This document shows positions 14,469 to 51,440 of a stretch of DNA of 64,000 nt, piece after piece; position 1 is the first letter of the stretch, and each line of letters opens with the position of its first letter. The position numbers and the translations under genes were made by a program. Source of the stretch: Verrucomicrobiota bacterium (lineage in GTDB: Bacteria > Verrucomicrobiota > Verrucomicrobiia > Verrucomicrobiales > DEV007); assembly GCA_039182965.1 (NCBI GenBank), contig JBCDBW010000002.1, positions 15,063 to 79,062 on the forward strand, written 5' to 3'. The notes under the pieces were generated by a model. It did not search any database. It saw only the letters and a program-made list of their open reading frames with translations, and was not told the origin of the DNA.

Positions 14469-14488
14469 CTCTTGAATTAGCGATATTT

Positions 14489-16384: not shown

Positions 16385-16411
16385 GCCGTGAGCGGGCACC
16401 CATCGATATAA

Positions 16412-17983: not shown

Positions 17984-18041
17984 ATTCGTGGGTGCGGAAT
18001 TTTTGGATCGAGGGGTGTTGGAGGAAAGATAGTTACGTGCC

Positions 18042-30843: not shown

Positions 30844-30847
30844 ACCC

Positions 30848-34678: not shown

Positions 34679-36176
34679 TGCTTCCGTCAACGTTACCGGG
34701 GAGTTTGTTTTTGCGTGCGAGTTGCTTGTTTCTCACGATTGGCATGATCAGTAATAGGAGCGATATTCCGCAGAATGCCAGTGAGAGGGGGCGGGTGACG
34801 AGCGGCAGGAAGCTGCCTCCTGATTGCATGAGTCCGGCGACGAGGTTTTCTTCAGCGACCGGTCTGAGGACGAAACCGATGACGAAGGGGGCGAGGGGGA
34901 TTTTGAATCGGTCCATGGCGAATCCAGCAATGCCGAACGCGAGCATGACCCAGACGTCGAAGAAGCGGTTAGCCAACGCGTAGGAGCCGATCACGCAGAA
35001 GGTCATAATTACGGGGACGAGGATGTATCGCGGGACGGAGCCGAGGCGTGCGATCCATCTGACGGACGCGATCATCATGAAGACCATGCAGACATTGGCC
35101 CAGAAGTATGATCCCGTGATGGCGTGGACGATTTCTGGATCGGATTCGAAGAGCATGGGCCCTGGTGCGAGGCCGTGGATGACGAAGGCACCGAGAAGGA
35201 TGGCATCGATGACGCTGCCGGGGATTCCGAGGGCGATGAGGGGGATGAGGGCGCCGCCGACGGTGGCGTTATTGGCGGATTCGGAAGCGACGACACCGTA
35301 GTCGCAGCCTTTTCCGAATTCGTCGGGTGTTTTTGAAGCGTTACGGGCGGCGGAGTAGGCCATGACCGAGCCGATGTTGGCACCGACGCCGGGGAGGATG
35401 CCGACCCAGGTGCCGATGAGGCTGCTCCTGAGGATGTTAACGGCTTGCTGTCGCCATTCGGTGAGGGTGAGGAACATGCCTTTGCGGTTTCCTTGAATAT
35501 CGCTATTGGAGGTTGCCGTGTGACGAAGGGCTTCGTTTAAGATTTGGCTCAGGGCGAAGAGGCCGATGAGGACGGGGAGAAGTTTGAAGCCATCGTTGAG
35601 TTCGGAAATGCCGAGGGTAAGTCGGATTTGACCGGTGCCGGGTGCGACGCCGGGCATGGCGATTAGGATACCGAGGAGGCCTGCGAAGATGCCTCGGATT
35701 TGGGATTTGCCGCCGACGCTGGCGATGAGGACGAGGGCCATGAGGACCATGGAGAAGAACTCGAATGGGCCCATGCGAGTGGACCATTTGGCCATGGGTC
35801 CGGCAAGGAGAATGAGGAATAGCCAGGAGAAGATGCCTCCCGCAAAAGAGGCGAGCACGCCGAGGCCGAGGGCGCGGCCGGGACGACCGGACTTCGCCAT
35901 GGGGTAGCCATCGAGCGTGGTCATCATGGATGCGGGGGTGCCAGGCATGCGCATGAGGGTGGCGGTAATGAGTCCGCCGCTGACGGAGCCCACATACATC
36001 GCGACGAGTAGAATCAGGGCGTCGCTTCCATTCATGGAGTACGTGAGCGGCAAGGTGAGCGCGATGAGCATTGCCCCGGTGAGGCCGGGAGTCGCGCCGA
36101 CGAGGATGCCGAGGGCGGTGCCGATGAGAATCCATCCGGCAGCGCCGGGGTCTGAGATGAATGTCAGTCCTTCCAT
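34671..36176 (-). CDS. tctA: tripartite tricarboxylate transporter (TTT) large permease TctA
   Basis: 501 aa, polytopic. GATPGLTGAMLIALTLP and TLDGYPMAKSGRPGRALG are typical of TctA/DUF112. Confidence 0.9.
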   Translation of the reverse strand: MEGLTFISDPGAAGWILIGTALGILVGATPGLTGAMLIALTLPLTYSMNGSDALILLVAMYVGSVSGGLITATLMRMPGTPASMMTTLDGYPMAKSGRPGRALGLGVLASFAGGIFSWLFLILLAGPMAKWSTRMGPFEFFSMVLMALVLIASVGGKSQIRGIFAGLLGILIAMPGVAPGTGQIRLTLGISELNDGFKLLPVLIGLFALSQILNEALRHTATSNSDIQGNRKGMFLTLTEWRQQAVNILRSSLIGTWVGILPGVGANIGSVMAYSAARNASKTPDEFGKGCDYGVVASESANNATVGGALIPLIALGIPGSVIDAILLGAFVIHGLAPGPMLFESDPEIVHAITGSYFWANVCMVFMMIASVRWIARLGSVPRYILVPVIMTFCVIGSYALANRFFDVWVMLAFGIAGFAMDRFKIPLAPFVIGFVLRPVAEENLVAGLMQSGGSFLPLVTRPLSLAFCGISLLLLIMPIVRNKQLARKNKLPGNVDGSNE

Positions 36177-36188
36177 ATTTGGGTTGTT

Positions 36189-37535
36189 TTACGGCAAGTC
36201 GATAACGAGGACCTGAGTGAAGAGATAGAAGCAACCGAAGCCGAGCGCGAGTCCGGCACCGACGAGGATGAAGACGGGGCGGATGCCGATGGGTCGTCCT
36301 TTGAGCCAAGCCAAGCCAAGCAGGGGGACGTAGACGAGGGTGGCGACGGGAAAAGAGACGCGGCCGATTTGCATGGCGAGGACGTAAGCGGCGCTCAAGA
36401 GCAGGACGGCGATCATGAGGGGCCAGCGGAGTGGGGCACTACTTGAGTTTGGTTCTCTGCTTGATCGGCCCGCGTTTTTTCGGAGTTCGTCAATTAGAAT
36501 CCAGGCTGCACAGAGGCTGAGAATTACAATGAGGAAGTTCGGTAAGTTGGGGAGGCGATCGAGTTCGGCGATTCCCACGGATGCGATTGCTTTTTCGCGG
36601 CGATCGATTTCGCGGCGCAGCGCGTCTCCTCGAAGAACGACTGGATCCACCTTCATTTCCGCGAGAGTTTCGCGGAGGGCTTCGCTGTTCATCGCCCGTT
36701 CGAGGGCATCTGCGAAGACTTCGATTCGCTCTTGTGGGGTACCGCGTGGGGCCCACCAGAATTGGATGCCTGAGCTTACGACATCGTATCCTTGCTCAGT
36801 GGCGGTGGGCAGATCTGGTGCCTCGGGATGGCGATCTTGTCCGAGAAACGCGAGCGCGCGGATGCCGGCATCGCGGAATTGGAAATATTCGGATATCGAG
36901 AAAGCGGTGGCGTCGATGTGACCGCCTTGGAGGGACGCGAAGCGTTTGGCGCCGCCGCCGGTTTGGACGTATCGGAATGCGCTGCCAGGTGCTTGGGCTT
37001 CGAGTTGGCGTCCGGCGAAATAACTGGGGGCCCCGACATTGGCGCCGAAGACGATGGTGTCGGGCTCGGCACCGGCTGTTTCCATCAGAGAGGCGAGGTC
37101 TTGGTGGGGAGAATTTTCGTCGACGCAGACGACCATCCCGGCGGTGCCGGTGGCGGCGATCGGGGTGAAGGCTTCGGGGCCGTAGGGGGTGATGCCGGCG
37201 TACTTCGCGGTGATGATGCCTTCGTGGAGATTGAGGAGAGTGTATCCATCTGCGAGCGCGTCTTTGACCCGGCGGCTGCCGATGGAACCGCCGGCTCCGG
37301 GCACGTTAATGACGACGAGCGGCTGGGGGAGGAGGTTTTCGTCGCGGATTGTTTTTTGGACGACCCTTACAAACTGATCGCTGCCCCCTCCGGCGCCGAA
37401 GGGAACGATGATTTTGACGGGCTTGTGGGGATAGGATTGGGAGGGCTTGTCGTCGGAAGGATTACAAGCTGCCAGCAGTAGAGCTGTGGCACAGAGCCAC
37501 CACACTCGTATTCCCAGGTTGTATGAGTCCCGCAT
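36189..37535 (-). CDS. TctC (Bug-family solute-binding lipoprotein) fused to a TctB-like 4-TM domain
   Basis: Lipobox LLLAAC. TctC blocks KIIVPFGAGGGSDQFVR, NVPGAGGSIGS and ADGYTLL. The C-terminal ~130 aa has four hydrophobic helices (FLIVILSLCAAWIL...LMIAVLLLSAAYVLA...VYVPLLGLAWL...FILVGAGLALGFGCFYLF). Confidence 0.8.
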   Translation of the reverse strand: MRDSYNLGIRVWWLCATALLLAACNPSDDKPSQSYPHKPVKIIVPFGAGGGSDQFVRVVQKTIRDENLLPQPLVVINVPGAGGSIGSRRVKDALADGYTLLNLHEGIITAKYAGITPYGPEAFTPIAATGTAGMVVCVDENSPHQDLASLMETAGAEPDTIVFGANVGAPSYFAGRQLEAQAPGSAFRYVQTGGGAKRFASLQGGHIDATAFSISEYFQFRDAGIRALAFLGQDRHPEAPDLPTATEQGYDVVSSGIQFWWAPRGTPQERIEVFADALERAMNSEALRETLAEMKVDPVVLRGDALRREIDRREKAIASVGIAELDRLPNLPNFLIVILSLCAAWILIDELRKNAGRSSREPNSSSAPLRWPLMIAVLLLSAAYVLAMQIGRVSFPVATLVYVPLLGLAWLKGRPIGIRPVFILVGAGLALGFGCFYLFTQVLVIDLP

Positions 37536-37809: not shown

Positions 37810-37924
37810 GGAGACTTTTCCTTTTTGTTTACCGGGATACCGGCATCACGGGGAAGTCTTTCACGAAAAACGCACCCAATTCGGGTAAGGAAGGGGGTGA
37901 GACGCCTGCTTGGGGTGAGCCGGT

Positions 37925-38139: not shown

Positions 38140-38182
38140 GAATGACAAAGTGGGGGGCGGATGGATGACAGTTTTGTCATTC
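38140..38182. repeat. perfect 10-bp inverted repeat GAATGACAAA / TTTGTCATTC with a nested alternative hairpin
   Basis: Left arm 38140-38149, right arm 38173-38182. The right arm can alternatively pair with ATGACA at 38165-38170 (loop GTTT). Sits just downstream of the DUF1080 stop at 38218. Confidence 0.4.
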
Positions 38183-38217
38183 CTGGCCAAGGGGGTGAGA
38201 GGGAGGGGTCTGGTCGG

Positions 38218-39219
38218 CTAGTCGACGACGGGATGGAAAAAGATGTTCCGGTATTGGACGGAGGTATGATCGCCCTGCAGGTAGAGGGGACCTGGAGAGG
38301 TGATATCGGATTGGTAGGCGCCCATGGTGTTGCCGACAATGGGTTGGTTATCGATGACCGTTTCTCCATTGAGGATGACGGTGGCGTGGCGATCGACGAT
38401 GGTGATTTCGTATTTTTGCCATTCACCGCCTACCTTGCCGGCCATCTTCGTAGGTTCGATGCGGCCAAAGATGGCGCCGACCCCCTGGATGCCCTGCATG
38501 CGGGAGTCACGATCGACGACTTGGGCTTCGTAGGCGCCACGGACGTAAATGCCGCTATTGCCGCCGGGGGGGACGTTGAATTCGATTTCGAGTTTGCCAT
38601 CGCCGAAGACACCTTCGGTGCGGAGGTTTCCGTAGCGTGAGAAGGGGTCGAAGGTTTCTTTTGGGGTTTCGTTGACGAGGATGCCGTCGGCGGCTTTCCA
38701 GCCGTTGCGGTGTTCGGGGTTGGAGAGTTTCCAACCGGAGAGGTCGGTGCCGTTGAAGAGGGAGACCGGCTCGCCGAATTTTACCTGAGAGAGGTCGGGG
38801 GCATCCGGGAGGGGCGGGAGACGTTTACCTGTGTGCGTGAGGGTGGATTGATCGGGAAGGGTGGTCACGAGGGTGATGGTGTCGCCATCGACGGTTGCCG
38901 TATGTGAGCAGGGAACGCGGTCTCCGGTGGGCGGGCCGCCGGGGAACTCGGGGTTACCCACTCGAAGGTTTCGGGTGAAGGTGAGTTCGTTATTGGCGAA
39001 GTCGAAGTCGGCGAGGTTCTTTGATTGTCCGACGGACCAGAGTTGGCCGGTGAACTGGTTGTCGACGACCTCAAGGGTGAGCCAACCGGCGTCGCTATTG
39101 TTCATTTTGATGGCCCAGTTGCCGATGAATTCACCGGCGCCGGCAAACGCGGATAGTGGGAGGAGGGTGATGCCGAAAAGGACAATCAGGAAGCGATCAA
39201 TCGGCGGGTGAGTGATCAT
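38218..39219 (-). CDS. secreted DUF1080 (3-keto-disaccharide hydrolase family) protein with N-terminal beta domain
   Basis: ATG 39219 overlaps the upstream TAA (TAATG) and gives signal peptide MITHPPIDRFLIVLFGITLLPLSAFA. SLFNGTDLSGWKL and LYLQGDHTSVQYRNIFFHPV motifs. Confidence 0.85.
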   Translation of the reverse strand: MITHPPIDRFLIVLFGITLLPLSAFAGAGEFIGNWAIKMNNSDAGWLTLEVVDNQFTGQLWSVGQSKNLADFDFANNELTFTRNLRVGNPEFPGGPPTGDRVPCSHTATVDGDTITLVTTLPDQSTLTHTGKRLPPLPDAPDLSQVKFGEPVSLFNGTDLSGWKLSNPEHRNGWKAADGILVNETPKETFDPFSRYGNLRTEGVFGDGKLEIEFNVPPGGNSGIYVRGAYEAQVVDRDSRMQGIQGVGAIFGRIEPTKMAGKVGGEWQKYEITIVDRHATVILNGETVIDNQPIVGNTMGAYQSDITSPGPLYLQGDHTSVQYRNIFFHPVVD

Positions 39220-40778
39220 TATTTCTTTTTCTTTGAGTGAGAGATGGAGGGGCGGGCGACTTTTTCGTTGGGGCCGCGCATAACGTAGGGTTCCCACTGG
39301 GCTTTTGCTTTTTCCCATTCTTCAAGGGTGCGGGTGGGATACCAGGCGGGCCAGCCGATCGAGTTGAAGTCCAGACTGTCGGGGTTATCGCGAACCCACA
39401 CATCGACGGTATCGGTGGGGCAGGACTCGGGGAAGGCGTTTTCGGCGCGGAAGGTATCGGAGACCCCTTGGTCATCGATCACGTTTTCGCGCCAGTCTTG
39501 GAGTTCGGCGAGGAGTTTCGCTTTGATATCGGCGTATTCCGGGTCATCGGCGACATTGTTAACTTCGTGGGGGTCTTTCTTAAGGTCGAAGAGTTCGAAA
39601 TCGGGTTTGGTGGGCGCGAAAAAGGCGGCTTGTTCGGGGTTGAGTTGGCCTTTCATGTTGAGGATGTTCATTTCGGCGAGCATGGGGTAGGCGCCCTCTT
39701 TGTATCGGTTGTATTGGCACCAAGCGCGCTCGGGCATTAGGTTTTGGATGAGTTTGTAGTCTTTCGAGCGGATGGCGCGCATGGAGTCGTGGGTTTCGTC
39801 CATCTTATCGCGCGCGGCGAAGACGTATTGGCGGTTTTTCACATCGTCGCTGAAGAGGCTTTTTCCGTGGAGCGGGACGGGCGCTTCAACCCCAGCGGCT
39901 TCGAGGATTGTGGCGCAGAGGTCGATGGATTGGACGAGGTCGTCGCTGACTTGACCGGGTTCGATTTTTCCGGGCCAGCGGACGATCATGGGGATGCGGA
40001 TTCCGCCGTCGTAGAGGAATTGTTTGCCGCGGATGTGGCAGCGGCCGTGGTCGCCGATAAAGATGACGATTGTATTTTCGGCGAGGCCTTCGTCGTCGAG
40101 GCGTTTCAGAACTTCGCCGACCTGGCGATCGACGAGTTGCATTTGTTCGAGGCCGTTTGCCCAGTCGCGTTTGACGAAGTCGGTGTCGGGATAGTAGGGG
40201 GGCAGTTCGACGTCGGCGATATCGATGGGGCGGTCGGGGTCGCGATCCCACGTGCGATGGGTGCCACCGAAGGTAATGCGGGCGAAGAAGGGTTGATCGG
40301 GCTCACGTTCGTTCCAATCGCGGCCCATAAAGAGATCGGCGTGGCTATTGGGCGTAAAGTTGCAGTCGATTTTCTTGCTGAGAAGGGCGGTGAAATACCC
40401 AGCGTCGGCGAGCAGGTGAGGGACGGGTTTGATCCCGTGGGGGAGGGGCTGTTTGTCGTGTTCGCGGTGTTGATTGGCGCGGATATAATTTTGGTGGAAG
40501 CCGGTCATCATGGCGGACCGGGAAGTGGAGCAGACCGGCGAGGTGGTGAAGGCGTTTTCGTATCGGATGCCTTCTTCGGCGAGTTTATCGACGTGCGGGG
40601 TGTGGAGGCCTTTGGTGCCGTAGCATGAGAGGTCGGCGGACCAGTCTTCGATGGTGATCCACAATACGTTAGGGGAATCCGCGGTTTCATCCAGATGCGG
40701 CTTTGCTGCGTCCAGGGATGTGATACCGGCGGTGGCGAGGGCGGTGCATGCGAGGAGGTATTTCAGGGGGGGATTCAT
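39219..40778 (-). CDS. sulfatase (S1 family) with atypical C-S-T-S-R active-site motif
   Basis: Signal peptide. NVLWITIEDWSADLSCYG. VCSTSRSAMMTG, verified on DNA at 40518-40532 as TGC TCC ACT TCC CGG. Confidence 0.88.
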   Translation of the reverse strand: MNPPLKYLLACTALATAGITSLDAAKPHLDETADSPNVLWITIEDWSADLSCYGTKGLHTPHVDKLAEEGIRYENAFTTSPVCSTSRSAMMTGFHQNYIRANQHREHDKQPLPHGIKPVPHLLADAGYFTALLSKKIDCNFTPNSHADLFMGRDWNEREPDQPFFARITFGGTHRTWDRDPDRPIDIADVELPPYYPDTDFVKRDWANGLEQMQLVDRQVGEVLKRLDDEGLAENTIVIFIGDHGRCHIRGKQFLYDGGIRIPMIVRWPGKIEPGQVSDDLVQSIDLCATILEAAGVEAPVPLHGKSLFSDDVKNRQYVFAARDKMDETHDSMRAIRSKDYKLIQNLMPERAWCQYNRYKEGAYPMLAEMNILNMKGQLNPEQAAFFAPTKPDFELFDLKKDPHEVNNVADDPEYADIKAKLLAELQDWRENVIDDQGVSDTFRAENAFPESCPTDTVDVWVRDNPDSLDFNSIGWPAWYPTRTLEEWEKAKAQWEPYVMRGPNEKVARPSISHSKKKK

Positions 40779-40796
40779 CCTTTTCGAGATTTGGAG

Positions 40797-43547
40797 TTAT
40801 TGGACACCGGAGAACTGGTCGACATTCATCTCTTGTTCCCAGGTGATGAGTTGTTTCGTGAGTTTTTGGACGATCTCTGGGTGGGCTTCCGCGAGATCCG
40901 CTTGTTCGTAGCGATCTTTTTCGACGTTGTATAGGTTTACTTTGCCGCTGCGGTAGGCGAGCAATTTCCATGGTCCTTCGCGAACGGAGGCGTAGAGGTC
41001 TTGGTAAGCTCGGTATGCGAAGACTGGCTGACCGCGTTCAAGAGTGGCATTATTTTTGATGGTGGACAAGAGGGAGACGCCATCGAGGTCTTCGTGATTA
41101 GCGGGGTTGCCGCCGGCGATTTCGACGAAGGTGGGGAAGAGGTCCGTGGTTTGGACGATGCTGGTATTCGTGGCGCCTTTCGCGGGAGTGACGCCGGGCC
41201 AATGAACGAAGAACGGGACGCGGGCGCCGCCTTCGCCGAGGGTGTCGGTGCGTTTGCTGCCGCGGAAGGGTGGATTTTCCCACCAGCTGCCTTGATCGGA
41301 GGTAAACACGATGAGGGTATCTTTGTCGACGCCCTTGGCTTTGAGGGTGTCGCGCACGCGACCGACGGATTCGTCGACGGAGGCGATCATCGCGGCGTAT
41401 TGGGCTTCGGCACCTTCGAGGCCTTTGTCTTCGAAATGTTTGACGAGGTCTTTTCGGCCGATGTGGGGTTTGTGGACGCCGTAGTACCAGAGGGAAATCA
41501 TGAAGGGTTGATTGCGGTCGTAGTCTTCGATGAAGGCAACGGTTTCGTCCGTAAGTTTGTCGGTGAGGTATCTTTCCTTTTCCTCTTCCAAGACGTCGGA
41601 GTATTTGAAATACGGCGGGTAATAGGACCCGGGGTGGCCAGCGTTCGCGGTTCCGATTTGGCGATCGAAGCCTTGTTTGACAGGGTGGAATTTTTCGTGA
41701 CCGAGGTGCCATTTACCGACGAAGAGGTTGTAGTATCCGAGTCTTTTGAGAGCTTCGGCGTAGGTGGTGTGTTCGAGGGGGAGCCAATTGCGGCATGGGA
41801 ATTGGGCGGGGTCGTCGGGCCAGAGATTGAATTCCACATCGGTGCGTCCGAAGTCATCGAAGTCGGGGTGTTTGGGGCCGCCGGGAATATGGCGGACGAT
41901 TTGGAGGCGAGCGGGGTGTTTGCCGGTAACGAGGGTGCTTCGGCTGGGGCTACAGGTGGGGCTGGCGATGTAGGCTTGTTCGAAGTCGATACTTTCGGAG
42001 GCTAGTTGGTCGATGCGGGGTGTTTCGTAGACAGGATGTCGATATCCGACGTCTGTCCAGCCGAGGTCATCGACGAAGAAGAGAACGATATTCGGTTTGT
42101 CATCCGAGCGGTCCTTTCTTACTGCGGGATCGAGAGGGGCGTTGGAATTGGGGATCTTTGCGGAGTGGCTTTTGGTTACGGATTGATGCTTGGGGTCATC
42201 GGCCAGGTTGGTGAACTCATTCGGATCGGAACGATGGTCGTAGAGTTCTTCCGAGCCATCGGCGTATTTGATGTATCGCCAGTTTTGGGAGCGGACGGCG
42301 TTGTTGCCGGGACCCTGGGTGGTGAGGGCGACCCGATTTTTCTGGGCGTCGGGATTCTTCAGGAGGGGGACGAGACTTTTTCCGTCGAGGTTAGGCGGCG
42401 ACTCGAGTTCGCAGAGTTCGGCGAGGGTGGGGTAGACATCGATGAGGCTTACGGGCCGCCGGGACTGCCTGCCTCTTTTGATGCCGGGGGCAGCGACGAT
42501 GAGGGGGACGTTAGTCGTTTGTTCCCAGAGGGCAAATTTTTCCCAGTGTTCTTTATGGCCGAGGTGATATCCGTGGTCAGACCAGAGCACGACGACCGTG
42601 TTATCGGCGATCGGGCTTTTCTCCAGGGCGTCGAGGAGGCGACCGACCATGGCATCGGCGAAGGTGGCGGAGGCGAGATAGGCTTGGACGGCATCGGGCC
42701 ATTTTTTGTTTTCCGTGATCCATTCGTGCCAATGGCGCCGGGCCATATCCTGGCCGGCGGCGGGGACATCATCGAGATCATCTGGGGGAGCTTCCGGGGT
42801 ATAATCGGAATCGGGGTATTGGTCGAAGTATGAGGCGGGGGTATACCAAGGAATGTGTGGGCGGTAGATGCCGACGGCGAGAAAGACGGGCTGCTCATGA
42901 TCTTGCGCGAGGATTTCTTCGGCCCATGAGACGACTTTGGCGTCGCCCATTTCATCGTCTTCGATCTCGAGGGCGGCCCAGTCAAAGAAGCCTTTGTAGA
43001 ATTTTTTGTTTCCGTTGGTGGGAACCTGAGGGGGGAGCGCTTCTTTTGGGAGTTGTTGTTGTTTTGAGGGGAAGAAGTCGTCCCAAGGTTCCGGGTCGAG
43101 ATAGCCTTCGTGCCCCCAGTTGCTCAGGGAAGCGGCGTGATAGAGTTTTCCTCCGCCGAGGGTGAGGTAGCCGTTGTCTTTAAAAAGCTGCGGCAGGGTT
43201 GTGGCGTCTTTGAGAGTGTTCGATTCGCGCCAGTCTTGCCAGTTGTAGTAGACGCCGCTGGAATTGGGGTGGAGACCAGTCATCACCGCGACGCGGGAAG
43301 GGTTGCACGCGGGGGCGGCACAGTGAGCGTTGGTGAAGAGGACCCCGTTTTGGGCGAGCCGATCGATGTGGGGTGTATGGGCTTTTGGCTCGTGGTTGAG
43401 GGCTCCGATGCCGTTATTGAGGTCATCGATGGCGATGAAGAGGACATTATAACGCGAGGCTTCATCCGAGTGTGGTTTTGCCGCGACGGGCGAAGCCACG
43501 ACGACGGACAGAGTGAGGATGCCGGCGAGGTAGAGGAGGCGGGGCAT
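40797..43547 (-). CDS. tandem (double-domain) sulfatase
   Basis: Signal peptide. Domain 1: NVLFIAIDDLNNGIG and CNPSRVAVMTG. Domain 2: NIVLFFVDDLGWTDVGY and CSPSRSTLVTG. Same domain order as the 18042 gene. Confidence 0.9.
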   Translation of the reverse strand: MPRLLYLAGILTLSVVVASPVAAKPHSDEASRYNVLFIAIDDLNNGIGALNHEPKAHTPHIDRLAQNGVLFTNAHCAAPACNPSRVAVMTGLHPNSSGVYYNWQDWRESNTLKDATTLPQLFKDNGYLTLGGGKLYHAASLSNWGHEGYLDPEPWDDFFPSKQQQLPKEALPPQVPTNGNKKFYKGFFDWAALEIEDDEMGDAKVVSWAEEILAQDHEQPVFLAVGIYRPHIPWYTPASYFDQYPDSDYTPEAPPDDLDDVPAAGQDMARRHWHEWITENKKWPDAVQAYLASATFADAMVGRLLDALEKSPIADNTVVVLWSDHGYHLGHKEHWEKFALWEQTTNVPLIVAAPGIKRGRQSRRPVSLIDVYPTLAELCELESPPNLDGKSLVPLLKNPDAQKNRVALTTQGPGNNAVRSQNWRYIKYADGSEELYDHRSDPNEFTNLADDPKHQSVTKSHSAKIPNSNAPLDPAVRKDRSDDKPNIVLFFVDDLGWTDVGYRHPVYETPRIDQLASESIDFEQAYIASPTCSPSRSTLVTGKHPARLQIVRHIPGGPKHPDFDDFGRTDVEFNLWPDDPAQFPCRNWLPLEHTTYAEALKRLGYYNLFVGKWHLGHEKFHPVKQGFDRQIGTANAGHPGSYYPPYFKYSDVLEEEKERYLTDKLTDETVAFIEDYDRNQPFMISLWYYGVHKPHIGRKDLVKHFEDKGLEGAEAQYAAMIASVDESVGRVRDTLKAKGVDKDTLIVFTSDQGSWWENPPFRGSKRTDTLGEGGARVPFFVHWPGVTPAKGATNTSIVQTTDLFPTFVEIAGGNPANHEDLDGVSLLSTIKNNATLERGQPVFAYRAYQDLYASVREGPWKLLAYRSGKVNLYNVEKDRYEQADLAEAHPEIVQKLTKQLITWEQEMNVDQFSGVQ

Positions 43548-43565
43548 GGAGGGGGTTATTTTTGC

Positions 43566-44870
43566 TTATGTGATGAGTTCGTTGATGAGGCCTGTGGAGT
43601 CTCCAAAAGAATCCGTATTGACCCCGCAGCCCTTGAGTTGGGAGAGCCAGAGGTTGCAGAGGGGGGTTTTGGGATCATCCATGACGATATGTTGGCCTTG
43701 TTTGAAGCCGGCTCCCCCTCCGGCGATTAGCGTTGGGCAATTTCGGAGGGTATGCACGGAGAAGAGGTTCGTGCCGAAGGTCAGGGATGTTTGGTCGAAG
43801 AGACTGGAGCCATCGGCTTCCTTTGATGCTTTGAGTTTATCGATGAAACGGGCGAGGAATTTCGCATTGTGGAAATCCCGCATCTCGGACACGTCGCGAC
43901 GTTCGCCGTGGGAGTAGTGACTCATTGTATGCGCACTGATTCCGGCGCCGAGGCTAGAGATCATGGTATCGACGGGCATGCGGTAAGTGAAGACGCGGGT
44001 GGCGTCGACTTGCATTGCGGCGACCATCAGGTCGACCATTACTCCCATTTCCTCATAGCCGATGAGGGAATCGGAAGGTTCGGTGAGGGGTGGGTCGGGT
44101 TGTTTCTTTTCGATGCCGAGCCATTGTTCTTCTTTTGAGAGGCGAACTTCGATTTCGCGAACGGACTCGAAGTATTCATCGAGTTTCTCGTTATCAGACT
44201 TGCTGATTTTGCCTTGCACGGATTTGGCGTCGGACATCACCGTATCGAGGACGCTGCGTTGTTCGGAGAGGCGGGCTTGGCGTTCGGCGAGGGGGGTATT
44301 TTCGTTGGAGAAGAGGCGATGGAAGGCGGCGACTGGGGTTTCGAGGCCTGAGACTGGTTTCCCTTGTCGGTTCCATGCGAGTGAGAGGCCGGGACCGTGT
44401 CCATCGCCGCCGGAGTTGCCTTTTCCCTTGGCGCAGAGTTGGATTGAGGCGAACCGAGTGTCCGTGCCGAGTTGTTCAGCTGCGAGTTGGTCGACGGAAA
44501 TCGTATTGTGAAAGCTTTGGCCAGGGACGGCGTATCGATTGGCACCGGTTAGCCAGAAAGTGCTGCCGCTGTGACCGTCCTGCGAATCTTTATGCATGAG
44601 ATTTTGGAGGAAGGTCAGGTCGTGACGATGTTTTTCGAGGGGTTTGAGTATATCGGGAAACGTGTAATCGGTGCCGACGTCGTCTTGATGGGGAAACCAT
44701 TTATCGGCGGTGACGCCGAAGCCCATGCCGAGCCAGACCATACGTTTTGGGCTGACGGGAGCGGTCGCAGCGGCGGCGAATTTGCGGAATCCGAATGATT
44801 CGAGGAAAGGCAACGCGATGGCGGCAGAGCTGCTTTTCAGGATGGCGCGACGAGTGATGTTGTTTTTCAT
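43566..44870 (-). CDS. DUF1552 domain protein, Tat-like signal
   Basis: ATG 44870 lies 7 nt after the upstream stop and gives MKNNITRRAILKSSSAAIALPFLESF. Paralogous to 29518 (HSGSTFWLTG, SHYSHGE, FGTNLFSVHTLRNCPTLIAGG). Confidence 0.85.
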   Translation of the reverse strand: MKNNITRRAILKSSSAAIALPFLESFGFRKFAAAATAPVSPKRMVWLGMGFGVTADKWFPHQDDVGTDYTFPDILKPLEKHRHDLTFLQNLMHKDSQDGHSGSTFWLTGANRYAVPGQSFHNTISVDQLAAEQLGTDTRFASIQLCAKGKGNSGGDGHGPGLSLAWNRQGKPVSGLETPVAAFHRLFSNENTPLAERQARLSEQRSVLDTVMSDAKSVQGKISKSDNEKLDEYFESVREIEVRLSKEEQWLGIEKKQPDPPLTEPSDSLIGYEEMGVMVDLMVAAMQVDATRVFTYRMPVDTMISSLGAGISAHTMSHYSHGERRDVSEMRDFHNAKFLARFIDKLKASKEADGSSLFDQTSLTFGTNLFSVHTLRNCPTLIAGGGAGFKQGQHIVMDDPKTPLCNLWLSQLKGCGVNTDSFGDSTGLINELIT

Positions 44871-44877
44871 GGTGACG

Positions 44878-47535
44878 TTACTTGCTTTGGAATGTTTTTG
44901 ATTGGACGAGAGCGTGAATGAAGTCGGCGATTTCGTAGTCGCTTGATTTTGCCTGGGCAACGATCTTGTGGGCGAGTTCGTGATCGGTGAATCCGAAGGG
45001 GCGACCGAGTCCGTACGATATGAGAGCTTCCGTGAGACCCATCGCGAAGCCGTCTAGTTCGTCGGCGACGAGATCGCGCAGTTCGAAGAAACTCGAGAAG
45101 GTTCTTCCTTGGTTGAGAGTGCCGCTGGGATCGATGGGGAACTCACCGAGAACCGATTGTTTTCTGCCTCGGATGACATCCGTTTCTCGCCACATACCTG
45201 CGGCGTCGAAGTTCTCCATACCGAACCCGATGGGATCGATTTTCTGGTGGCATTGGGCGCACTGCGGTTCTTGTTGGTGGATGAGGACGAGATCGCGTGA
45301 GGAGAGGATTTCGTCTTCGAAGCGACTTAATTGGGGGACATTTGGGGGAGCGGGTGGTGGGGGGTCGTTGAGGAGTTTTCGGAGGACCCAGACGCCGCGT
45401 TCCACGGGCGAAGATCGTTGTCCATCGGATCCCATGGCGGCGACGGCGGCGGAGCCGATGAGGCCGCCGCGCGGAGAGTCTTTGGGGACAGTGACTTTCC
45501 GCCAGTGATGGCCTTCGACGCCTTCGATACCGTAGTAATCTGCGAGCACATCGTTGATTACGACAAAGTCGGATTTGAGAAGATGGCGCAGAGGAAGCTT
45601 TTCGTGAAGGAGAGTTGAGATGGTTTGGTAGATTTCTTCTCCGGCGCTGTCGCGGGCGGCGTTATCGAACTCGGGGTAATCGCGGCCTTCGAAAGCAAAC
45701 ATTCCGAGCCGATACATTTCGAGCCATTGGAAGGCGAAGCTGCGGATGAATCGATCAGAGCGAGAATCGGCGAGGAGGCGTTTGGTTTGTTTTTCGAGGA
45801 TCCAAGGCTTCGCCAGTTTGCCATCTTTGCCGAGAGCGAGGAGTTCTTCGTCGGGAGGTTCGCTCCAGAGGAAGTATGAGAGGCGGTTTGCCAGTTCGGT
45901 CCCTGTCAATTTTTCGGAGGTTTCGTTGCTGGCAGCTTCCACCATGTAGAGGAAACTGGGCGAGGTGAGTACGATGGCGAGGGGATCGATGAGGGCTTGG
46001 GTGAGATCTTCGCCTTCCGCGCGCTTGATTTGGAAGCGCGTCACGAGTTTGTCGACGAAATCGGGCTCGGGTTGTTTGCCGCGGAAGGCTTGCGTCGTAA
46101 AGCGGCGGATTACTTCCCTGGCGTAGTCTTCTTCACTCTGAGCATCTTCTTTTTCGAAAAGAACTTTTGCGACGGCCGGATTCGGTTCCTCGGGGAGGGG
46201 GCCTTCCATTTCGACCCAATCGATCCAAACGCCCCAAGGGGTTCCGTAGCCGTTTTCCTCAACGTAGATGGAATGTAAGTTTTTGTCGCCGCGATCCATG
46301 TGGGTACGTTTTTGGACCCAGTATGCGGCGTCGGCTCCGGGTTCATGCTCGATCGGGAACTCGATCACTTGTGGATCATTTAGTGGAGCGGAGACTTTGC
46401 GCCAGCCGAGGCGGGTTGCGTTTTGATCTTCGCGGCGGGAAAACTCGAGATAGCGAAAGCGTGCGGGATCATCCTCGTAGGTAGCGGCGCGGACACGGAT
46501 GACGTACTTCCCCGGCTGCCAGGCTCGTAATTGTGGGAATTTCATCTGGGTGAATCCGTTCTTGATGGTTATCATGAGGGCGGCGCCTTTTTTGTTTTCG
46601 GGAGCATCGAGCCATTTTTGAAGAGGGACGAATCTGTCGGAGATGGCTCCGCTTGAGCGGTTGCCTTGCCACGCGTCGAGGAAGCCAAATTGCTTGGCGG
46701 CTTCGTCGGTTCCCCCTGCGCCCAAAAAGGAGTAGTATCGCTCTGCTCGATCGAGGCTTTCGGCTGCCAAGTTGGCGTAGTGTGGGTAGTAGAATTCTTC
46801 GGGCTCGATACGGATGATTTCGGATTCTCGCAGCGGTTTGGCCAGGAGTGCGAGTTCCAGGGCGTTGCGGGCGGTGCCGAGGTATTGTTCAAGTTGGTCG
46901 CTGGAGAAGTAGAGGGAAGCGCCTTCGGTATCGAATTCTGCGTTGGCGCGATCATCGGGCAGGTTTGAGGTATCGGGTCTGATTCCCAGGAGGGCCTCGA
47001 GCGTGTTCGCGTATTCACGTCGGTTGAGTCGGCGGAGGGCGATCTCACCACCAGAATCGCTCAGGACGCTTCGGGCGAGGACCATTTGTTCGGACAGGTC
47101 ACGGAGGAACTCGGTTTTTTCTTCTGCGCTTACTTGTTTTTTATCTTCCGGCGGCATTTCACCGGAGTTCATCGCATTGAGGACCTTGTTCCAAATTTCG
47201 GCGGTCCGGATGTCATCTGTGAGTGTGAAGGAGAGGGTCTCGAGGTTGACTTCACCTTTCTCGGTGCTGGAGTCGTGGCAATCGAGGCAATACGTGTCCA
47301 AGACATCGAAGTGCCGGTCCGGCATGACGGCTTGCAGATCATCTGTGGCTGCGTGGGCGAAAGTAGTGGAGCAGATCAGGCCGGAGGCGACTATTTTCAG
47401 GGTTCTGAGAGCGACGGTCGTGGATGCAAAGGCGGCAACCAGTCTTTGGTGTCGGCGTGCATTTCCCCCCGGGTGTCGAGGGAGGGATGGAGGGGTGAGG
47501 AAGCTTGGGAGCTTTTTGGTTGTGAAGAGCATCAT
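44878..47535 (-). CDS. PSCyt3/PSD (DUF1587-DUF1592-DUF1595-DUF1588-DUF1585 family) protein
   Basis: 885 aa. CLDCHDSSTEKGEVNLE near the N-terminus. CAQCHQKIDPIGFGMENFD near the C-terminus. Paralogous to 30848. Confidence 0.85.
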   Translation of the reverse strand: MMLFTTKKLPSFLTPPSLPRHPGGNARRHQRLVAAFASTTVALRTLKIVASGLICSTTFAHAATDDLQAVMPDRHFDVLDTYCLDCHDSSTEKGEVNLETLSFTLTDDIRTAEIWNKVLNAMNSGEMPPEDKKQVSAEEKTEFLRDLSEQMVLARSVLSDSGGEIALRRLNRREYANTLEALLGIRPDTSNLPDDRANAEFDTEGASLYFSSDQLEQYLGTARNALELALLAKPLRESEIIRIEPEEFYYPHYANLAAESLDRAERYYSFLGAGGTDEAAKQFGFLDAWQGNRSSGAISDRFVPLQKWLDAPENKKGAALMITIKNGFTQMKFPQLRAWQPGKYVIRVRAATYEDDPARFRYLEFSRREDQNATRLGWRKVSAPLNDPQVIEFPIEHEPGADAAYWVQKRTHMDRGDKNLHSIYVEENGYGTPWGVWIDWVEMEGPLPEEPNPAVAKVLFEKEDAQSEEDYAREVIRRFTTQAFRGKQPEPDFVDKLVTRFQIKRAEGEDLTQALIDPLAIVLTSPSFLYMVEAASNETSEKLTGTELANRLSYFLWSEPPDEELLALGKDGKLAKPWILEKQTKRLLADSRSDRFIRSFAFQWLEMYRLGMFAFEGRDYPEFDNAARDSAGEEIYQTISTLLHEKLPLRHLLKSDFVVINDVLADYYGIEGVEGHHWRKVTVPKDSPRGGLIGSAAVAAMGSDGQRSSPVERGVWVLRKLLNDPPPPAPPNVPQLSRFEDEILSSRDLVLIHQQEPQCAQCHQKIDPIGFGMENFDAAGMWRETDVIRGRKQSVLGEFPIDPSGTLNQGRTFSSFFELRDLVADELDGFAMGLTEALISYGLGRPFGFTDHELAHKIVAQAKSSDYEIADFIHALVQSKTFQSK

Positions 47536-47550
47536 GCGGAGGACGGGGGG

Positions 47551-48888
47551 CTATTTTGCAAAGTCGAACTCCAGCGTGGGGCCGGCTGCTTCGGGATGAG
47601 TGTCGCTCGCGAATGCGAGGACGAGACTGGGCACGAGTTCGCCTGTGACGGGATCGACTTCGGCGTCGAGTATGAAAGTGACCGATTGCCCTCTGTTTTC
47701 CTTCAGGAAAGTGAGAAGACGCTCGCCAGCGAGGAAACGACTTCCGGTTTGGCGGCTCCTGGGGATCTCGATGTGTCCGATGAGCGTGCCGTCTTCGGGG
47801 TTGGGACCGGATTCCCATGTGGCGCTCAAGTCCCAGTCGCTCTTTTCTTTGTTAGTGAGTCCGTAAACGGCGATTTTGCTGACTTTCGGCAGGCGCGTGG
47901 CATATCCGATACCACTGGGAACTTGGTTGAGGCGCAGGCGAACCGATTCGATGGACGTCATGTCGACTTCGGGGACTTCGAAGGCGAAGAAGGATCGTCT
48001 TTCGTGGTTGGTCTCCTTGTTCTTTCGTTTGACCATTAACTTATCGGGGTGGAGCCATTTCTCTTTGTTGGCGCGAATGACGGAAGTGGAGCGGCCGTTG
48101 GTGCCGATGCGGAGGGTATTTTGGGCGGGTTCGATCTCTGCTTCCGGAAGCGTTCCTTCGTAGGTGGAGAGAGTATTGTCTGTGATCGTGGCGCCCTGTT
48201 GGTCGAAGACGCGGACCTCTTCCCCGGTCGTTTCCATAAACACGGCTACTTCTCCTTCGATGACTTCGACATTGGTGTAATCACGTTCATCGGCGACGTT
48301 GACGGCGAAAGCGGTCCCGTAATCGATGACATGACCTTCGGGGGTCTCGAGGGCAAAACCGATGGCGGATTCCGGGACATTCAGGATGGCGGCGCCGCTG
48401 TTTAGGCGGGCGCGCATGGGGCCTTTCAGGTAGAGCTGCGAGGGGGCCTCGAGAAGCATTTCGGCACCAGAGCGGAAACGGATTGTCGCGATTCCGGAGG
48501 TGAGTTTCATGCGGCCGCGCGTGAGTTTTGAGCCGGGCTCGGTGGGGAGGGAGCTTTCCCAAGCGGCATCTTCACTGGAAACCAGTTCGGCGATGATTTT
48601 GGGTTTAGAGGCTTGTGTCCATGCGAGCGTGGCGAGGAGGATAACCGCGGCGGCGGCGGAAAGCCAGGCGACGGGACGGAAGACGGGGGAGATTAGTTTT
48701 GAGTCTGCGGCGGCGGCATCGGCTTGTTGTTCGAGGGCTATTTCGCGAAGGGCGGCGTCATGGCCGGCTTCGGTGATGAACTTTTTTCGAAGCTCGGGAT
48801 TTTCGGCGAGCAAATCATCAAGTTTGGCGACATCGGATTCAGAGGCTTCGCCGATGAAGTAGCGATGGATGAGTGATTCTGGTTTCAT
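47551..48888 (-). CDS. FecR-family anti-sigma factor with C-terminal DNRLRE/CBM96-like beta-sandwich
   Basis: ATG 48888 lies 1 nt after the sigma-gene TAA (TAAGATG); the track starts at TTG 48909. Cytoplasmic anti-sigma helix region, a single TM (WLSAAAAVILLATLAW), and a FecR domain (GIATIRFRSGAEMLLEAPSQLYL). The tail carries RRSFFAFEV...SVRLRLN...IAVYGL...WDLSATWESGP...LVLAFASD...PTLEFDF. Confidence 0.8.
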   Translation of the reverse strand: MKPESLIHRYFIGEASESDVAKLDDLLAENPELRKKFITEAGHDAALREIALEQQADAAAADSKLISPVFRPVAWLSAAAAVILLATLAWTQASKPKIIAELVSSEDAAWESSLPTEPGSKLTRGRMKLTSGIATIRFRSGAEMLLEAPSQLYLKGPMRARLNSGAAILNVPESAIGFALETPEGHVIDYGTAFAVNVADERDYTNVEVIEGEVAVFMETTGEEVRVFDQQGATITDNTLSTYEGTLPEAEIEPAQNTLRIGTNGRSTSVIRANKEKWLHPDKLMVKRKNKETNHERRSFFAFEVPEVDMTSIESVRLRLNQVPSGIGYATRLPKVSKIAVYGLTNKEKSDWDLSATWESGPNPEDGTLIGHIEIPRSRQTGSRFLAGERLLTFLKENRGQSVTFILDAEVDPVTGELVPSLVLAFASDTHPEAAGPTLEFDFAK

Positions 48889-48889
48889 C

Positions 48890-49435
48890 TTAGAAGGACT
48901 CCCGGGCAACGGTTTGGTGGACGCAGAGGGAGAGTTTTTCGCGGAGGCGTCCGAGTAGTTTGTAGAGGGCGTTGGCGGATTTCCCGGAGTGTTGGGCGAG
49001 GGATTTTACTTTGCCGTCGCTGGAGTAGGGTGCGAGGAGAAGTTCCTGATGTGAGTTTGAGAACCGGGCTAGACAGACGCGCAGCGCTTTCATGGCTTTT
49101 GCTTGTTCATCGGGATCGACGGCTTCGGCTTCATCGGCGAGCAATTCAAGCACAGCGGGGCTGAATACGTGCTTGTCGCGGCCGCGCTTGGAGAGTTCGG
49201 AGAGGCATTTGAAGCGGACGATGACTTTGGCCCAGGGGAGGAAACCGTCTTCGTGTTCGAGCTGATCGAACTTCTGCCAGAGGGTGAGACTGGCCTCCTG
49301 GATGACCTCGTCAACGAGTGTCCAATTGGGGAGGAGTGAACGGGCAAAGGCTCTCAGGGCGGGTTCGTGTCGCATGAGAAGGGGCATGAAATCACCTTCT
49401 GAGGGACGGTTCCCGGGGTTTTCAGGGCTGGCCAT
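48890..49435 (-). CDS. RNA polymerase sigma-70 factor, ECF subfamily
   Basis: 181 aa. Region 2 (DEVIQEASLTLWQKFDQ...FLPWAKVIVRFK) and region 4 (VKSLAQHSGKSANALYKLLGRLREKL). Confidence 0.88.
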   Translation of the reverse strand: MASPENPGNRPSEGDFMPLLMRHEPALRAFARSLLPNWTLVDEVIQEASLTLWQKFDQLEHEDGFLPWAKVIVRFKCLSELSKRGRDKHVFSPAVLELLADEAEAVDPDEQAKAMKALRVCLARFSNSHQELLLAPYSSDGKVKSLAQHSGKSANALYKLLGRLREKLSLCVHQTVARESF

Positions 49436-49523
49436 ATACCAACTTATTCCGGGACGAGGGTGGACCTGCCGATTTTTTCTGAGAAATCGGAGGAAAAGGT
49501 TGGAAATACGGGGGTTTCCGGGC

Positions 49524-50333
49524 TTATTCGAGGGGCATCAGTTCGATGTTTCGGAACCAGACGGGTTGGCCCTCGGCTTGGAGGGCGATGTGTCCGAAGC
49601 TCAGGGGAATGGGGGCCCCGGCCTTGAGGAGAGCCTCGGCGGATTCGACGCGCCCTTCGGGATCGAGTTGGGGGTGTTGGTATCGGAGGACTTCAGTGCC
49701 ATTGACGTGGTGAATGATCTCCTCATTTCCCCGGACCTCGATTTCGACCTGGACCCACTCATCTGGGGGAAAGGTGGAGGCGGTGGATTGGACGATGTGT
49801 TGGGTGACGAGTTGGCCGTCGATTTCTAGATTGGTGCCTGGGGTGCACACGTTTCCGGTGGGGCGCTTTCCTTTCCCTGCGTCGGCGAGGAACTGGAACT
49901 CGAGGCTGACGGGGAATTCCTGATCGAGCCCCATGCTTTGCGGGGACTGGGAGTGGATCATGAAACCGCTGTTGAGGTTCACGAACTTGGGGGCATCGGG
50001 CATCATTTCTCCGATGAAGCGATATTCCATGCGGAGTCGGTAGTGGGAATAGGGGATGTTAGTGTAGAGGTGTCCGTATTGGTTATCGAATTTTTCGTAG
50101 TCGTCGTAGGTGACTTTAAGGATGCCGTCTTCCACTCGAAACGTATCGGCAAAGTTTTCTCCGAGAGGGTGGCCGGTGATTTTGACGGTCCAGCCGTCGA
50201 GGTTCTTTCCGTTGAAGAGCGACACCCAATCAGAGTGATCTTCGGTGGTCTCTGGAGAGGGCTTGTTCGCGAGCAAGATCGGGGATGAGATTAGGGCGAG
50301 GAGCATGGTGATGAGGCGAGTGATGGGGTTCAT
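49524..50333 (-). CDS. secreted DUF1080 (3-keto-disaccharide hydrolase family) protein
   Basis: ATG 50333 gives MNPITRLITMLLALISSPILLA; the alternative ATG is 50378. SLFNGKNLDGWTV and GHIALQAEGQPVWFRNIELMPLE motifs. Confidence 0.85.
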   Translation of the reverse strand: MNPITRLITMLLALISSPILLANKPSPETTEDHSDWVSLFNGKNLDGWTVKITGHPLGENFADTFRVEDGILKVTYDDYEKFDNQYGHLYTNIPYSHYRLRMEYRFIGEMMPDAPKFVNLNSGFMIHSQSPQSMGLDQEFPVSLEFQFLADAGKGKRPTGNVCTPGTNLEIDGQLVTQHIVQSTASTFPPDEWVQVEIEVRGNEEIIHHVNGTEVLRYQHPQLDPEGRVESAEALLKAGAPIPLSFGHIALQAEGQPVWFRNIELMPLE

Positions 50334-50438
50334 GCTGCTTATTTTGGCACTGTTGGCGTTGGGGGGATAGCTTTTCATCGCGTGATGGACGGGCCCACGG
50401 ATTCCGATTAATTTTCCTTCGAAGTATTTTTTCCTATT

Positions 50439-51440
50439 ATGAAGAAGATCGTTTTTTCTCTCTGTATTCTCGGATGTTTGAGCTGTGTTTTGCCGGCTGC
50501 GGACGCGCCGAAGGTGGTATTTTTGACCGGGGACGGGGAGTATCGGTCTGAGGAGTCGATGCCGATGTTAGCGCGGCTATTGGAGCGGGATTTTGGGTAT
50601 GACGTGACGGTGGGATTTTCAGTGGATGAGGAGGGGGTCGTGGATCCGCACGAGCAGGGATCGTTGACGGGCACGGAGGAATTGGCGGACGCGGATTTAC
50701 TGGTTTTGTTTTTGCGGTTTCGGCGACCGGACGAGGAGACGTTCGGGCGGATACTGGCGCATTTGGAATCGGGAAAGCCGGTCGTGGGATTTCGGACGGC
50801 GACGCATTCGTTTCGGTTCGACGACGGATCTCCGCATGCGGGATGGGGATACCAGGATGATCCGGAGTTTGTGCACAGCTTGGCGGGGGGAGAGACGATG
50901 CGGGAGTTGCTGGGTCAGAAGTGGATCACGCATCATGGTCATTTTGATGACGGGGAGAAGCCGTTGACGGAGGTGGCGGTAGTGGAGGGCGCGGGGGAGC
51001 ATCCCATTTTGCGTGGGGTGGAACCATTTGGGGCGTATTCGTGGTTGTATCATGTGGAAGGTGGGGATGATACCGTGGCGGGGGAGCCGGTGTTTTTGTT
51101 AGAAGGGACCGCTTTGCGCTCGAAGAAAGAGGAACGGGGAGAGTTGGACCGGTATCCGTTGACGAATCCAGTGGCGTGGACGAAGACGCATGCGTTTGGT
51201 GAGGAGCCGGCGCGGGTTTTCACGACGACCTTGGGACATCCGTATGATTTTCGGGAGCCGGCGATGCGGCGATTGGCGTTGCAGGGGATCTTGTGGGCGT
51301 TGGGGCGGGAGGATGAGATTCCGGAGGGGGGCGTCGATGTGGACGTGGTGGGGGAGTATGCGCCGAGCAATTCGGGGTTTGGGGATGCTTATAAAGGGGG
51401 TAAGAAGCCGGAGGATTTTTTTGTGCCGGCGGGGGAGTGA
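50439..51440 (+). CDS. ThuA-like (trehalose utilisation) domain protein, secreted
   Basis: Signal peptide. KVVFLTGDGEYRSEESMPMLARLLE and FTTTLGHPYDFREPAMRRLALQGILWAL fit the ThuA family. Confidence 0.75.
   Translation: MKKIVFSLCILGCLSCVLPAADAPKVVFLTGDGEYRSEESMPMLARLLERDFGYDVTVGFSVDEEGVVDPHEQGSLTGTEELADADLLVLFLRFRRPDEETFGRILAHLESGKPVVGFRTATHSFRFDDGSPHAGWGYQDDPEFVHSLAGGETMRELLGQKWITHHGHFDDGEKPLTEVAVVEGAGEHPILRGVEPFGAYSWLYHVEGGDDTVAGEPVFLLEGTALRSKKEERGELDRYPLTNPVAWTKTHAFGEEPARVFTTTLGHPYDFREPAMRRLALQGILWALGREDEIPEGGVDVDVVGEYAPSNSGFGDAYKGGKKPEDFFVPAGE

Follow-up and report, generated by a model that had tools for sequence, protein, structure and literature searches.

How do bacteria of the Planctomycetota and Verrucomicrobiota, which hold dozens to hundreds of sulfatase and PSCyt/DUF1501/DUF1552 genes, control their expression? 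The question is raised in a compact form by one locus within a 64,000-nucleotide (nt) stretch of a metagenome-assembled marine Verrucomicrobiota genome (GenBank assembly GCA_039182965.1, contig JBCDBW010000002.1, positions 15,063 to 79,062). This whole stretch is referred to below as the window, position 1 being its first letter. Within it, seven co-oriented, tightly packed open reading frames (ORFs) occupy the minus strand (49435..38218) and encode, in order, an extracytoplasmic function (ECF) sigma factor, a FecR-type anti-sigma factor, a PSCyt3/PSD protein, a DUF1552 protein, a tandem sulfatase, an S1_8A-like sulfatase and a DUF1080 protein. From sequence comparisons and structure models, we consider it probable that these genes constitute an autoregulated ECF sigma/anti-sigma switch for exported sulfated-glycan-processing proteins, in which a C-terminal tail of the anti-sigma factor resembling the carbohydrate-binding module (CBM) family CBM96 would act as the sensor.

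An initial annotation of the window, made from its letters alone, had described this seven-gene layout as a single transcription unit. The layout and every junction matched on direct reading of the sequence, and the gene identities agreed with Pfam and NCBIfam assignments in a hidden Markov model (HMM) check. The sigma and anti-sigma genes meet at TAA-G-ATG; spacers of 15, 7, 18 and 18 nt successively separate the anti-sigma gene from PSCyt3, PSCyt3 from DUF1552, DUF1552 from the tandem sulfatase and the tandem sulfatase from the second sulfatase; and a TAATG overlap joins the second sulfatase gene to DUF1080, placing the DUF1080 start at 39219 (333 amino acids (aa)). A 680-nt intergenic gap follows the last gene. 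About 330 nt into this gap lies a weak candidate operon-end hairpin (37873..37887, minus strand), the sole minus-strand terminator-like site between 37500 and 50500 in an E. coli-type consensus scan, whose promoter and terminator counts were at or below chance and are uninformative for the Planctomycetota–Verrucomicrobiota–Chlamydiota (PVC) group. A short inverted repeat without a T-run, GGAATGACAAAACTGTCATCC, is also present approximately 40 nt past the DUF1080 stop (38150-38200, minus strand). The presence of a single clade-specific promoter motif before the sigma gene, together with the lack of any minus-strand terminator-like site in that scan until past the last gene, supports the proposal that the seven genes form one tight unit that is probably co-transcribed.

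The sigma gene (48890..49435, minus strand) encodes a 181-aa protein that scores above the curated cutoff of the TIGR02989 'Rhodopirellula/Verrucomicrobium family' (158.4 bits, cutoff 124.55), with TIGR02937 spanning residues 19-169 and a Pfam Sigma70_r2 match at 5e-13. It is small and has regions 2 and 4 only, as expected of an ECF (group 4) sigma-70 factor. A FecI-like sigma factor was ruled out, as similarity to E. coli FecI was undetectable. The adjoining gene (47551..48888, minus strand) encodes a single-pass anti-sigma factor of 445 aa, for which an AlphaFold2 model built on an alignment of 85 homologues had a mean predicted local distance difference test (pLDDT) score of 90.5. The model has the FecR-type layout, comprising an N-terminal cytoplasmic domain (aa 1-61, 48888-48706; helices 3-61), one transmembrane helix (aa 74-94, 48669-48607) and a periplasmic FecR beta-domain (aa 100-245, 48591-48154), to which a separate beta-sandwich tail is added (aa 258-445, 48117-47554). 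Pfam FecR (PF04773) matched above its cutoff (3.4e-7), as it did in 83 of the 85 homologues, and Foldseek searches of the Protein Data Bank (PDB) with the FecR part returned the anti-sigma factor BDI_1681 (4m0n) and PupR (6ovk_R).

The identity of the tail is central to the proposed switch. Its best Foldseek match in the PDB was 8wab_A (E 1.2e-8, TMt 0.79, root-mean-square deviation 2.9 Å), the chondroitin-sulfate-binding CBM of a chondroitinase, and it also matched the alginate-binding CBM96 module 7vbo (E 5.7e-7, TMt 0.65). In a phmmer search with the tail alone, which covered 1.84 billion representative sequences, the tail subfamily was found almost exclusively at the C terminus of FecR anti-sigma factors. 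Three of eight distant FecR-plus-tail proteins that were checked exceeded the CBM96 cutoff (30.7-34 bits), and a three-repeat CBM96 protein, the one real match checked that lay outside the anti-sigma architecture, matched the tail with an E value of 9e-9. Given these distant proteins and the three-repeat match, along with the modelled fold, we accept the tail as a predicted divergent member of the CBM96/DNRLRE superfamily, in keeping with the earlier assignment of the C-terminal ~190 aa to a beta-sandwich of this type. A sequence search of the PDB with the anti-sigma profile returned nothing useful, so the link to CBM96 comes solely from the fold search and transitive HMM matches. The resemblance extends to the structural neighbours of CBM96 (TM6-N4, 7vbo) and 8wab, which likewise include the prodomains of transforming growth factor-beta (TGF-beta) proteins. 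These modules are known to bind anionic polysaccharides, in agreement with a sulfatase operon; Lys27 and Arg36 are the key basic residues for polysaccharide binding by TM6-N4 (PMC9971899). Unlike the tail, however, the known CBM96 and 8wab modules are appended to polysaccharide lyases.

Other features of the anti-sigma factor relate it to cell-surface signalling systems. Gly191-Thr192 (48313..48318, minus strand), a candidate self-cleavage site in the FecR domain, was invariant in the 85 homologues and aligned with the Gly-Thr of 'LGTEF' in E. coli FecR, albeit in a weak pairwise alignment (E 0.14); FecR and FoxR self-cleave at this Gly-Thr (PMC9249621). As in the FecI/FecR/FecA, FoxR and PupR systems, an ECF sigma gene stands immediately before the gene for a single-pass anti-sigma factor that binds sigma through its N-terminal domain and has a FecR domain in the periplasm, the Gly-Thr pair is kept as a candidate self-cleavage motif, and release is likely to proceed by regulated proteolysis. 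There are differences as well. No ORF matching a TonB-dependent receptor was detected in the 64-kb window by Pfam scans, bearing out for this span the absence of a transducer claimed at the outset, and none was found in four annotated homologous loci. Pfam and NCBIfam scans likewise revealed no FecR_C/STN-like domain in the anti-sigma factor, in which the CBM96-like beta-sandwich replaces this transducer-docking subdomain. Moreover, the sigma factor belongs to TIGR02989 rather than resembling FecI, and the regulon would consist of sulfatases and cytochrome-type proteins instead of iron-uptake functions.

A conserved motif was found upstream of 49435, the place proposed for an ECF promoter search. 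This putative sigma-dependent promoter (49444..49480, minus strand) consists of an A-tract, a -35-like C-GGCAGG-T (49471-49464), a 15-nt spacer and a -10-like GAATAA (49449-49444). An A-tract followed by CGGCAGGT-N15-GAATAR was shared by 41 of 75 sigma upstream regions, the window included, and a strict form of the pattern matched 40 times in 1.34 Mb, with 33 of the matches directly before sigma genes. The window holds one real copy of the motif; a further match, at 54760 (plus strand), falls inside an opposite-strand gene, the chance expectation being approximately 2.8 matches. Sigma genes only 26-32% identical to that of the window carry other bipartite motifs, and a motif class that changes with sigma clade is what group-specific ECF promoters would be expected to show. 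Across loci, 6-8 nt separate the -10-like hexamer from the sigma ATG (8 nt in the window), a distance that stays constant even though the N-terminal extension of the sigma factor varies from 10 to 22 residues among homologues and its internal Met is not present in all, implying that the transcript would be leaderless or nearly so and start at the sigma ATG. GGCAGG-N15-GAATAR also occurs directly before cargo genes, namely a DUF1552 gene in locus L013 (1676-1702) and a sulfatase gene in locus L017 (14023-14049), copies that are useful for regulon definition.

The association of regulators with cargo recurs across genomes. We drew 80 loci from species-representative genomes, added four by exact look-up, dropped one (L001, the same place as L006) and sorted the other 83 by phmmer, using the window proteins as queries. 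The sigma gene was directly upstream of the anti-sigma gene in 74 of the 77 loci with room upstream. Downstream genes were counted in the 60 loci with at least 4.5 kb of sequence on that side, the PSCyt3 and DUF1552 pair being scored if it lay on the same strand and no further than 9 kb away: the pair was present in 31 loci and sulfatases in 39, 18 loci having both and 8 neither. The hosts belong to Verrucomicrobiota and Planctomycetota and frequently carry several paralogous modules per genome, and tight gene order was kept in relatives with 45-62% anti-sigma identity. The predicted synteny across PVC genomes is therefore present, in that the sigma gene adjoins and the pair, sulfatases or both mostly follow, and the recurrence of the sigma/anti-sigma pair with its cargo in dozens of genomes from two phyla places the arrangement beyond chance. 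Other cargo in homologous loci includes F5/8-type-C proteins, flavin adenine dinucleotide (FAD) oxidoreductases, a GFO/IDH/MocA enzyme with a twin-arginine translocation (Tat) signal, DUF7133 proteins that carry a cytochrome c or cupredoxin domain and a giant CotH/Laminin_G protein; sulfatases and periplasmic redox proteins are the common thread.

Several individual loci add to this picture. In L025 (12944-15724) and L044 (7157-9997), the downstream sulfatases are interspersed with large DUF7133 proteins that end in a cytochrome c or cupredoxin domain, a further link between sulfatases and periplasmic electron carriers. In L002 (68-8268) and L039 (1102-9262), both from Rubripirellula, another sigma gene stands directly upstream of the FecR-CBM96 module and pairs with a 564-aa anti-sigma-like protein bearing a Laminin_G_3 tail; a sulfatase, PSCyt2/PSD1 and DUF1501 come next, which suggests that lectin-tailed anti-sigma factors heading PSCyt operons are a general rule. 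Members were also found in a metagenome-assembled genome (MAG) labelled 'Bdellovibrionota' (L013) and in a 'Rhodothermales' MAG (P0094), for which mis-binning or transfer outside PVC is possible.

What, then, would the switch control? All five cargo proteins have an N-terminal hydrophobic, signal-peptide-like segment or a twin-arginine motif, as judged by eye from the translations. The first, an exported protein of 885 aa (44878..47535, minus strand), contains the Pfam domains PSCyt1, PSD3, PSD5, PSD4 (DUF1592), PSCyt3 and PSD2, and had no solved relative in the PDB by sequence. It carries two haem-c CxxCH motifs (aa 83-87, 47289-47275; aa 759-763, 45261-45247), both kept in 46 of 46 relatives, and with these two invariant motifs it is a predicted dihaem c-type cytochrome. 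The second (43566..44870, minus strand) is a Tat-exported DUF1552 (HXXSHH) protein of 434 aa (Pfam 2.8e-74) whose twin-arginine pair is invariant among relatives. An hhalign comparison of DUF1552 with DUF1501 gave a probability of 95.8% (E 8e-9, 357 columns), and profile-profile comparison linked DUF1501 in turn to sulfatases at 93%. Foldseek matches of a DUF1552 AlphaFold2 model (pLDDT 79, predicted template modelling score 0.81) were all to the alkaline-phosphatase superfamily, comprising steroid sulfatase, LtaP, BT3057 and YejM, at modest TM values of 0.37-0.45. By model and by profile-profile comparison, DUF1552 has a predicted sulfatase/alkaline-phosphatase-superfamily fold.

The initial annotation had placed the DUF1592/DUF1552 pair where SusC/D-like capture or uptake components would sit. 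We rejected such a role on the predicted fold of DUF1552 and the haem motifs of its partner: with a sulfatase/alkaline-phosphatase fold and two invariant CxxCH motifs, PSCyt3/DUF1552 looks like a periplasmic enzyme/redox pair and not like a barrel-plus-lid transporter. In 24 of 33 copies adjoining this anti-sigma factor, DUF1552 shared 59-81% identity across two phyla, whereas most other DUF1552 copies showed 22-42% identity, marking the adjacent protein as a distinct orthogroup; identity was 67% or more in each of the best 120 database matches. The window contains a second DUF1552/PSCyt3 pair (29518-33253, plus strand), which has the reverse gene order and no adjoining sigma/anti-sigma genes, and its DUF1552 is only 22% identical to that of the operon. 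In L005, the closest relative (80% anti-sigma identity), an extra DUF1552-PSCyt3 pair lies between the anti-sigma gene and the orthologous PSCyt3-DUF1552 pair (11359-18942). He et al. 2017 (PMC5615132), in their account of PSCyt2/PSD1 with DUF1501 and PSCyt3/PSD with DUF1552, had earlier pointed out that PSCyt3 pairs with a conserved, uncharacterized neighbour and lies near sulfatases, an arrangement like that found here. New with respect to that study are the tie between one DUF1552/PSCyt3 orthogroup and a dedicated sigma/anti-sigma pair, the fold relation joining DUF1552, DUF1501 and sulfatases, and the promoter motif.

The remaining cargo is dominated by sulfatase domains, all three of which match PF00884 and have the C-x-[PTA]-x-R signature of S1 formylglycine-dependent sulfatases. 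The tandem S1 sulfatase (40797..43547, minus strand, 916 aa) matched Pfam Sulfatase in two stretches (6e-103). Its N-terminal domain has CNPSR and is S1_7-like (aa 26-456 against PDB 6hhm, an S1_7 ulvan sulfatase); its C-terminal domain has CSPSR and resembles S1_16/S1_19 (aa 479-906 against the S1_16 kappa-carrageenan sulfatase 9fo1, E 1.6e-70). The second sulfatase (39219..40778, minus strand, 519 aa) matched the lambda-carrageenan-specific S1_8A structures 9bb9 and 9bes (E 1e-102), with about half of the residues identical over the aligned regions. Its CSTSR motif, at first sight unusual, is normal for S1_8A-type enzymes: the solved S1_8A enzyme has CSTAR at the aligned position, the common pattern being C-S-T-x-R. 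The closest solved relatives of the three domains thus act on carrageenans and ulvan. The last gene (38218..39219, minus strand) encodes an exported DUF1080 (3keto-disac_hyd) protein with PF06439 at aa 152-328 (1e-37), an N-terminal ~150 aa without a family assignment and PDB relatives among 'putative glycosyl hydrolase' entries such as 4qhz.

In the switch that we favour, the cytoplasmic helices of the anti-sigma factor would hold the TIGR02989-type sigma factor at the membrane in the resting state. The tail, whose fold is supported by the model and whose ligand we propose, would detect a periplasmic anionic or sulfated oligosaccharide, or a partner protein loaded with one, and this would turn the anti-sigma factor into a substrate for site-1/site-2 proteolysis, freeing the sigma factor. 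Sigma-bound RNA polymerase would then act at CGGCAGGT-N15-GAATAR to produce one leaderless polycistronic mRNA encoding the sigma and anti-sigma factors, in a positive feedback, along with the five cargo proteins.

Two known circuits offer points of comparison. In Clostridium thermocellum, a membrane anti-sigma factor of the SigI/RsgI system senses polysaccharide through an extracytoplasmic CBM, undergoes autoproteolysis in its periplasmic domain and activates glycan-degrading genes (PMC10328401). SigI/RsgI is the best functional analogue of the direct sensing proposed here, although the module belongs in full neither to this system nor to FecIR-type signalling. SigI is not an ECF sigma factor, both families are unrelated to the sigma and anti-sigma factors of the window, and Pfam and NCBIfam scans of these two proteins found neither a SigI-type sigma factor nor an RsgI N-terminal domain; in addition, the Gram-positive sensor is on the cell surface, whereas sensing here would be periplasmic. 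Polysaccharide utilization loci (PULs) of Bacteroidetes provide the second comparison. They too can have an ECF sigma factor and a FecR anti-sigma factor heading co-oriented glycan-utilization genes, possibly including sulfatases, and their ECF/anti-sigma systems receive the signal from a SusC-like TonB-dependent transducer paired with SusD. No Pfam match to a SusC-like transporter or a SusD-like lipoprotein was found anywhere in the window, and a predicted dihaem cytochrome and a sulfatase-fold Tat protein occupy the SusC/D position, so that the operon does not qualify as a PUL. The operon had been proposed as an analogue of the PUL circuit; this stands for the regulatory logic, to which the resemblance is limited.

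How firmly the tail can be assigned a sensory role has to be judged against several observations that count against the proposed switch. The matches of the window tail to Pfam CBM96 (17.6-19.7 bits, cutoff 26; E 7.8e-4 to 3.6e-3) and NCBIfam DNRLRE (21.7 bits, cutoff 34; E 1.7e-4), although they point to the assignment, were weak and below cutoff, and only 8 of 85 close homologues matched CBM96 at E<=0.01. At phmmer sensitivity, no fusion of the tail to a carbohydrate-active enzyme was found among the 1.84 billion representatives; in the Foldseek searches, its fold was common to TGF-beta prodomains, which bind proteins; and across paralogues with different cargo its mean pairwise identity was 50%, compared with 39% for the cytoplasmic anti-sigma domain, contrary to the prediction for substrate-specific glycan sensors. 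At the level of transcription, the promoter hexamers are unlike the classic ECF GGAAC/CGTC motifs, and E. coli-type consensus scans leave room for internal PVC promoters. Direct binding of glycan by the tail is plausible from its modelled fold, although we stop just short of favouring it. The missing enzyme fusions, the shared prodomain fold and the conservation across paralogues would also suit the same circuit with a tail that docks a protein, most likely the PSCyt3/DUF1552 complex, which would serve as sensor/transducer much as FecA does for FecR. The specific PSCyt3/DUF1552 orthogroup that follows the anti-sigma gene, with its much higher DUF1552 identity than elsewhere, also speaks for such docking. 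We nevertheless regard it as unlikely, if worth serious consideration, as the pair is missing from the 9 kb downstream in around half of the loci whose flank is long enough, some carry sulfatases only or other cargo, and structurally the tail is nearest to CBMs with anionic glycans as ligands.

Two further explanations depart more widely from the proposed switch. Many ECF/anti-sigma pairs, such as RseA-type systems, sense envelope stress, and the high conservation of the periplasmic domains whatever the cargo would be in line with a general envelope-stress or export-load sensor whose tail merely shields the anti-sigma factor from periplasmic proteases. A genome can hold several paralogous modules that differ from one another in promoter class and cargo, which points instead to signal-specific circuits, and sulfatases and periplasmic redox enzymes make up the cargo throughout, with no chaperones or proteases, making a stress sensor highly improbable. 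The least probable of the explanations considered is that the sigma and anti-sigma genes form a two-gene operon acting elsewhere, with the cargo genes under their own promoters. Gaps of 1-18 nt and one overlap leave no space for a promoter plus leader, the window has no second real motif copy and, in the E. coli-type scan, no minus-strand terminator-like site within the unit, and the tight order is found in relatives with 45-62% anti-sigma identity as well. These points are set against the differences in cargo between genomes, the motif copies directly before cargo genes in L013 and L017, which make separate promoters possible, and the blindness of consensus scans to PVC promoters.

The window as a whole is rich in sulfatases, and no RNA family was detected in the window by Rfam. 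A second regulator-headed cluster (1813-22440, plus strand) starts with an F5/8-type-C (discoidin) histidine kinase and a LuxR-type response regulator, followed by a sulfatase, DUF1080, an unknown protein, PSCyt2/PSD1, DUF1501, another unknown, two sulfatases, a tandem sulfatase and a further unknown; its cargo theme is that of the operon and its sensor type is different. In the interval 49524-51440, another DUF1080 gene lies 88 nt upstream of the sigma gene on the same strand, a layout also seen in L005, and is adjoined by a divergent ThuA-family gene, both families being tied to 3-keto-sugar metabolism. Between the operon and the next sulfatase are a TctA gene and a fused TctC-TctB gene of a tripartite tricarboxylate transporter (34671-37535, minus strand). 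From 12000 to 64000, the GC skew of the plus strand is strongly positive (0.15-0.40) independently of gene orientation, its sign being the same over the plus-strand genes (12-33 kb) as over those of the minus strand (33-58 kb).

In literature searches that did not cover planctomycete ECF surveys, we found no paper joining CBM96/DNRLRE with FecR or an anti-sigma factor and no description of ECF/FecR control of sulfatases in PVC bacteria. The module gives several handles on such control: a regulator family with a plausible sensor domain, a promoter motif that can be searched genome-wide for regulons, and cultured hosts, namely Rubripirellula reticaptiva, Novipirellula rosea, Luteolibacter algae and Thalassoglobus neptunius. 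A broader proposal, which we put forward tentatively and consider doubtful as a whole, is that FecR-CBM96 anti-sigma factors may be PVC-wide, transducer-free receptors for sulfated or anionic oligosaccharides that drive leaderless, autoregulated operons, with the closely linked and unusually conserved PSCyt3/DUF1552 pair, under their control, as a redox-coupled enzyme of sulfated-glycan catabolism. If true, this would open a first route to the function of the PSCyt/PSD and DUF1552 families. A FecR-type anti-sigma factor with a lectin-like module in place of its docking end would extend the logic of cell-surface signalling to bacteria without an outer-membrane partner.

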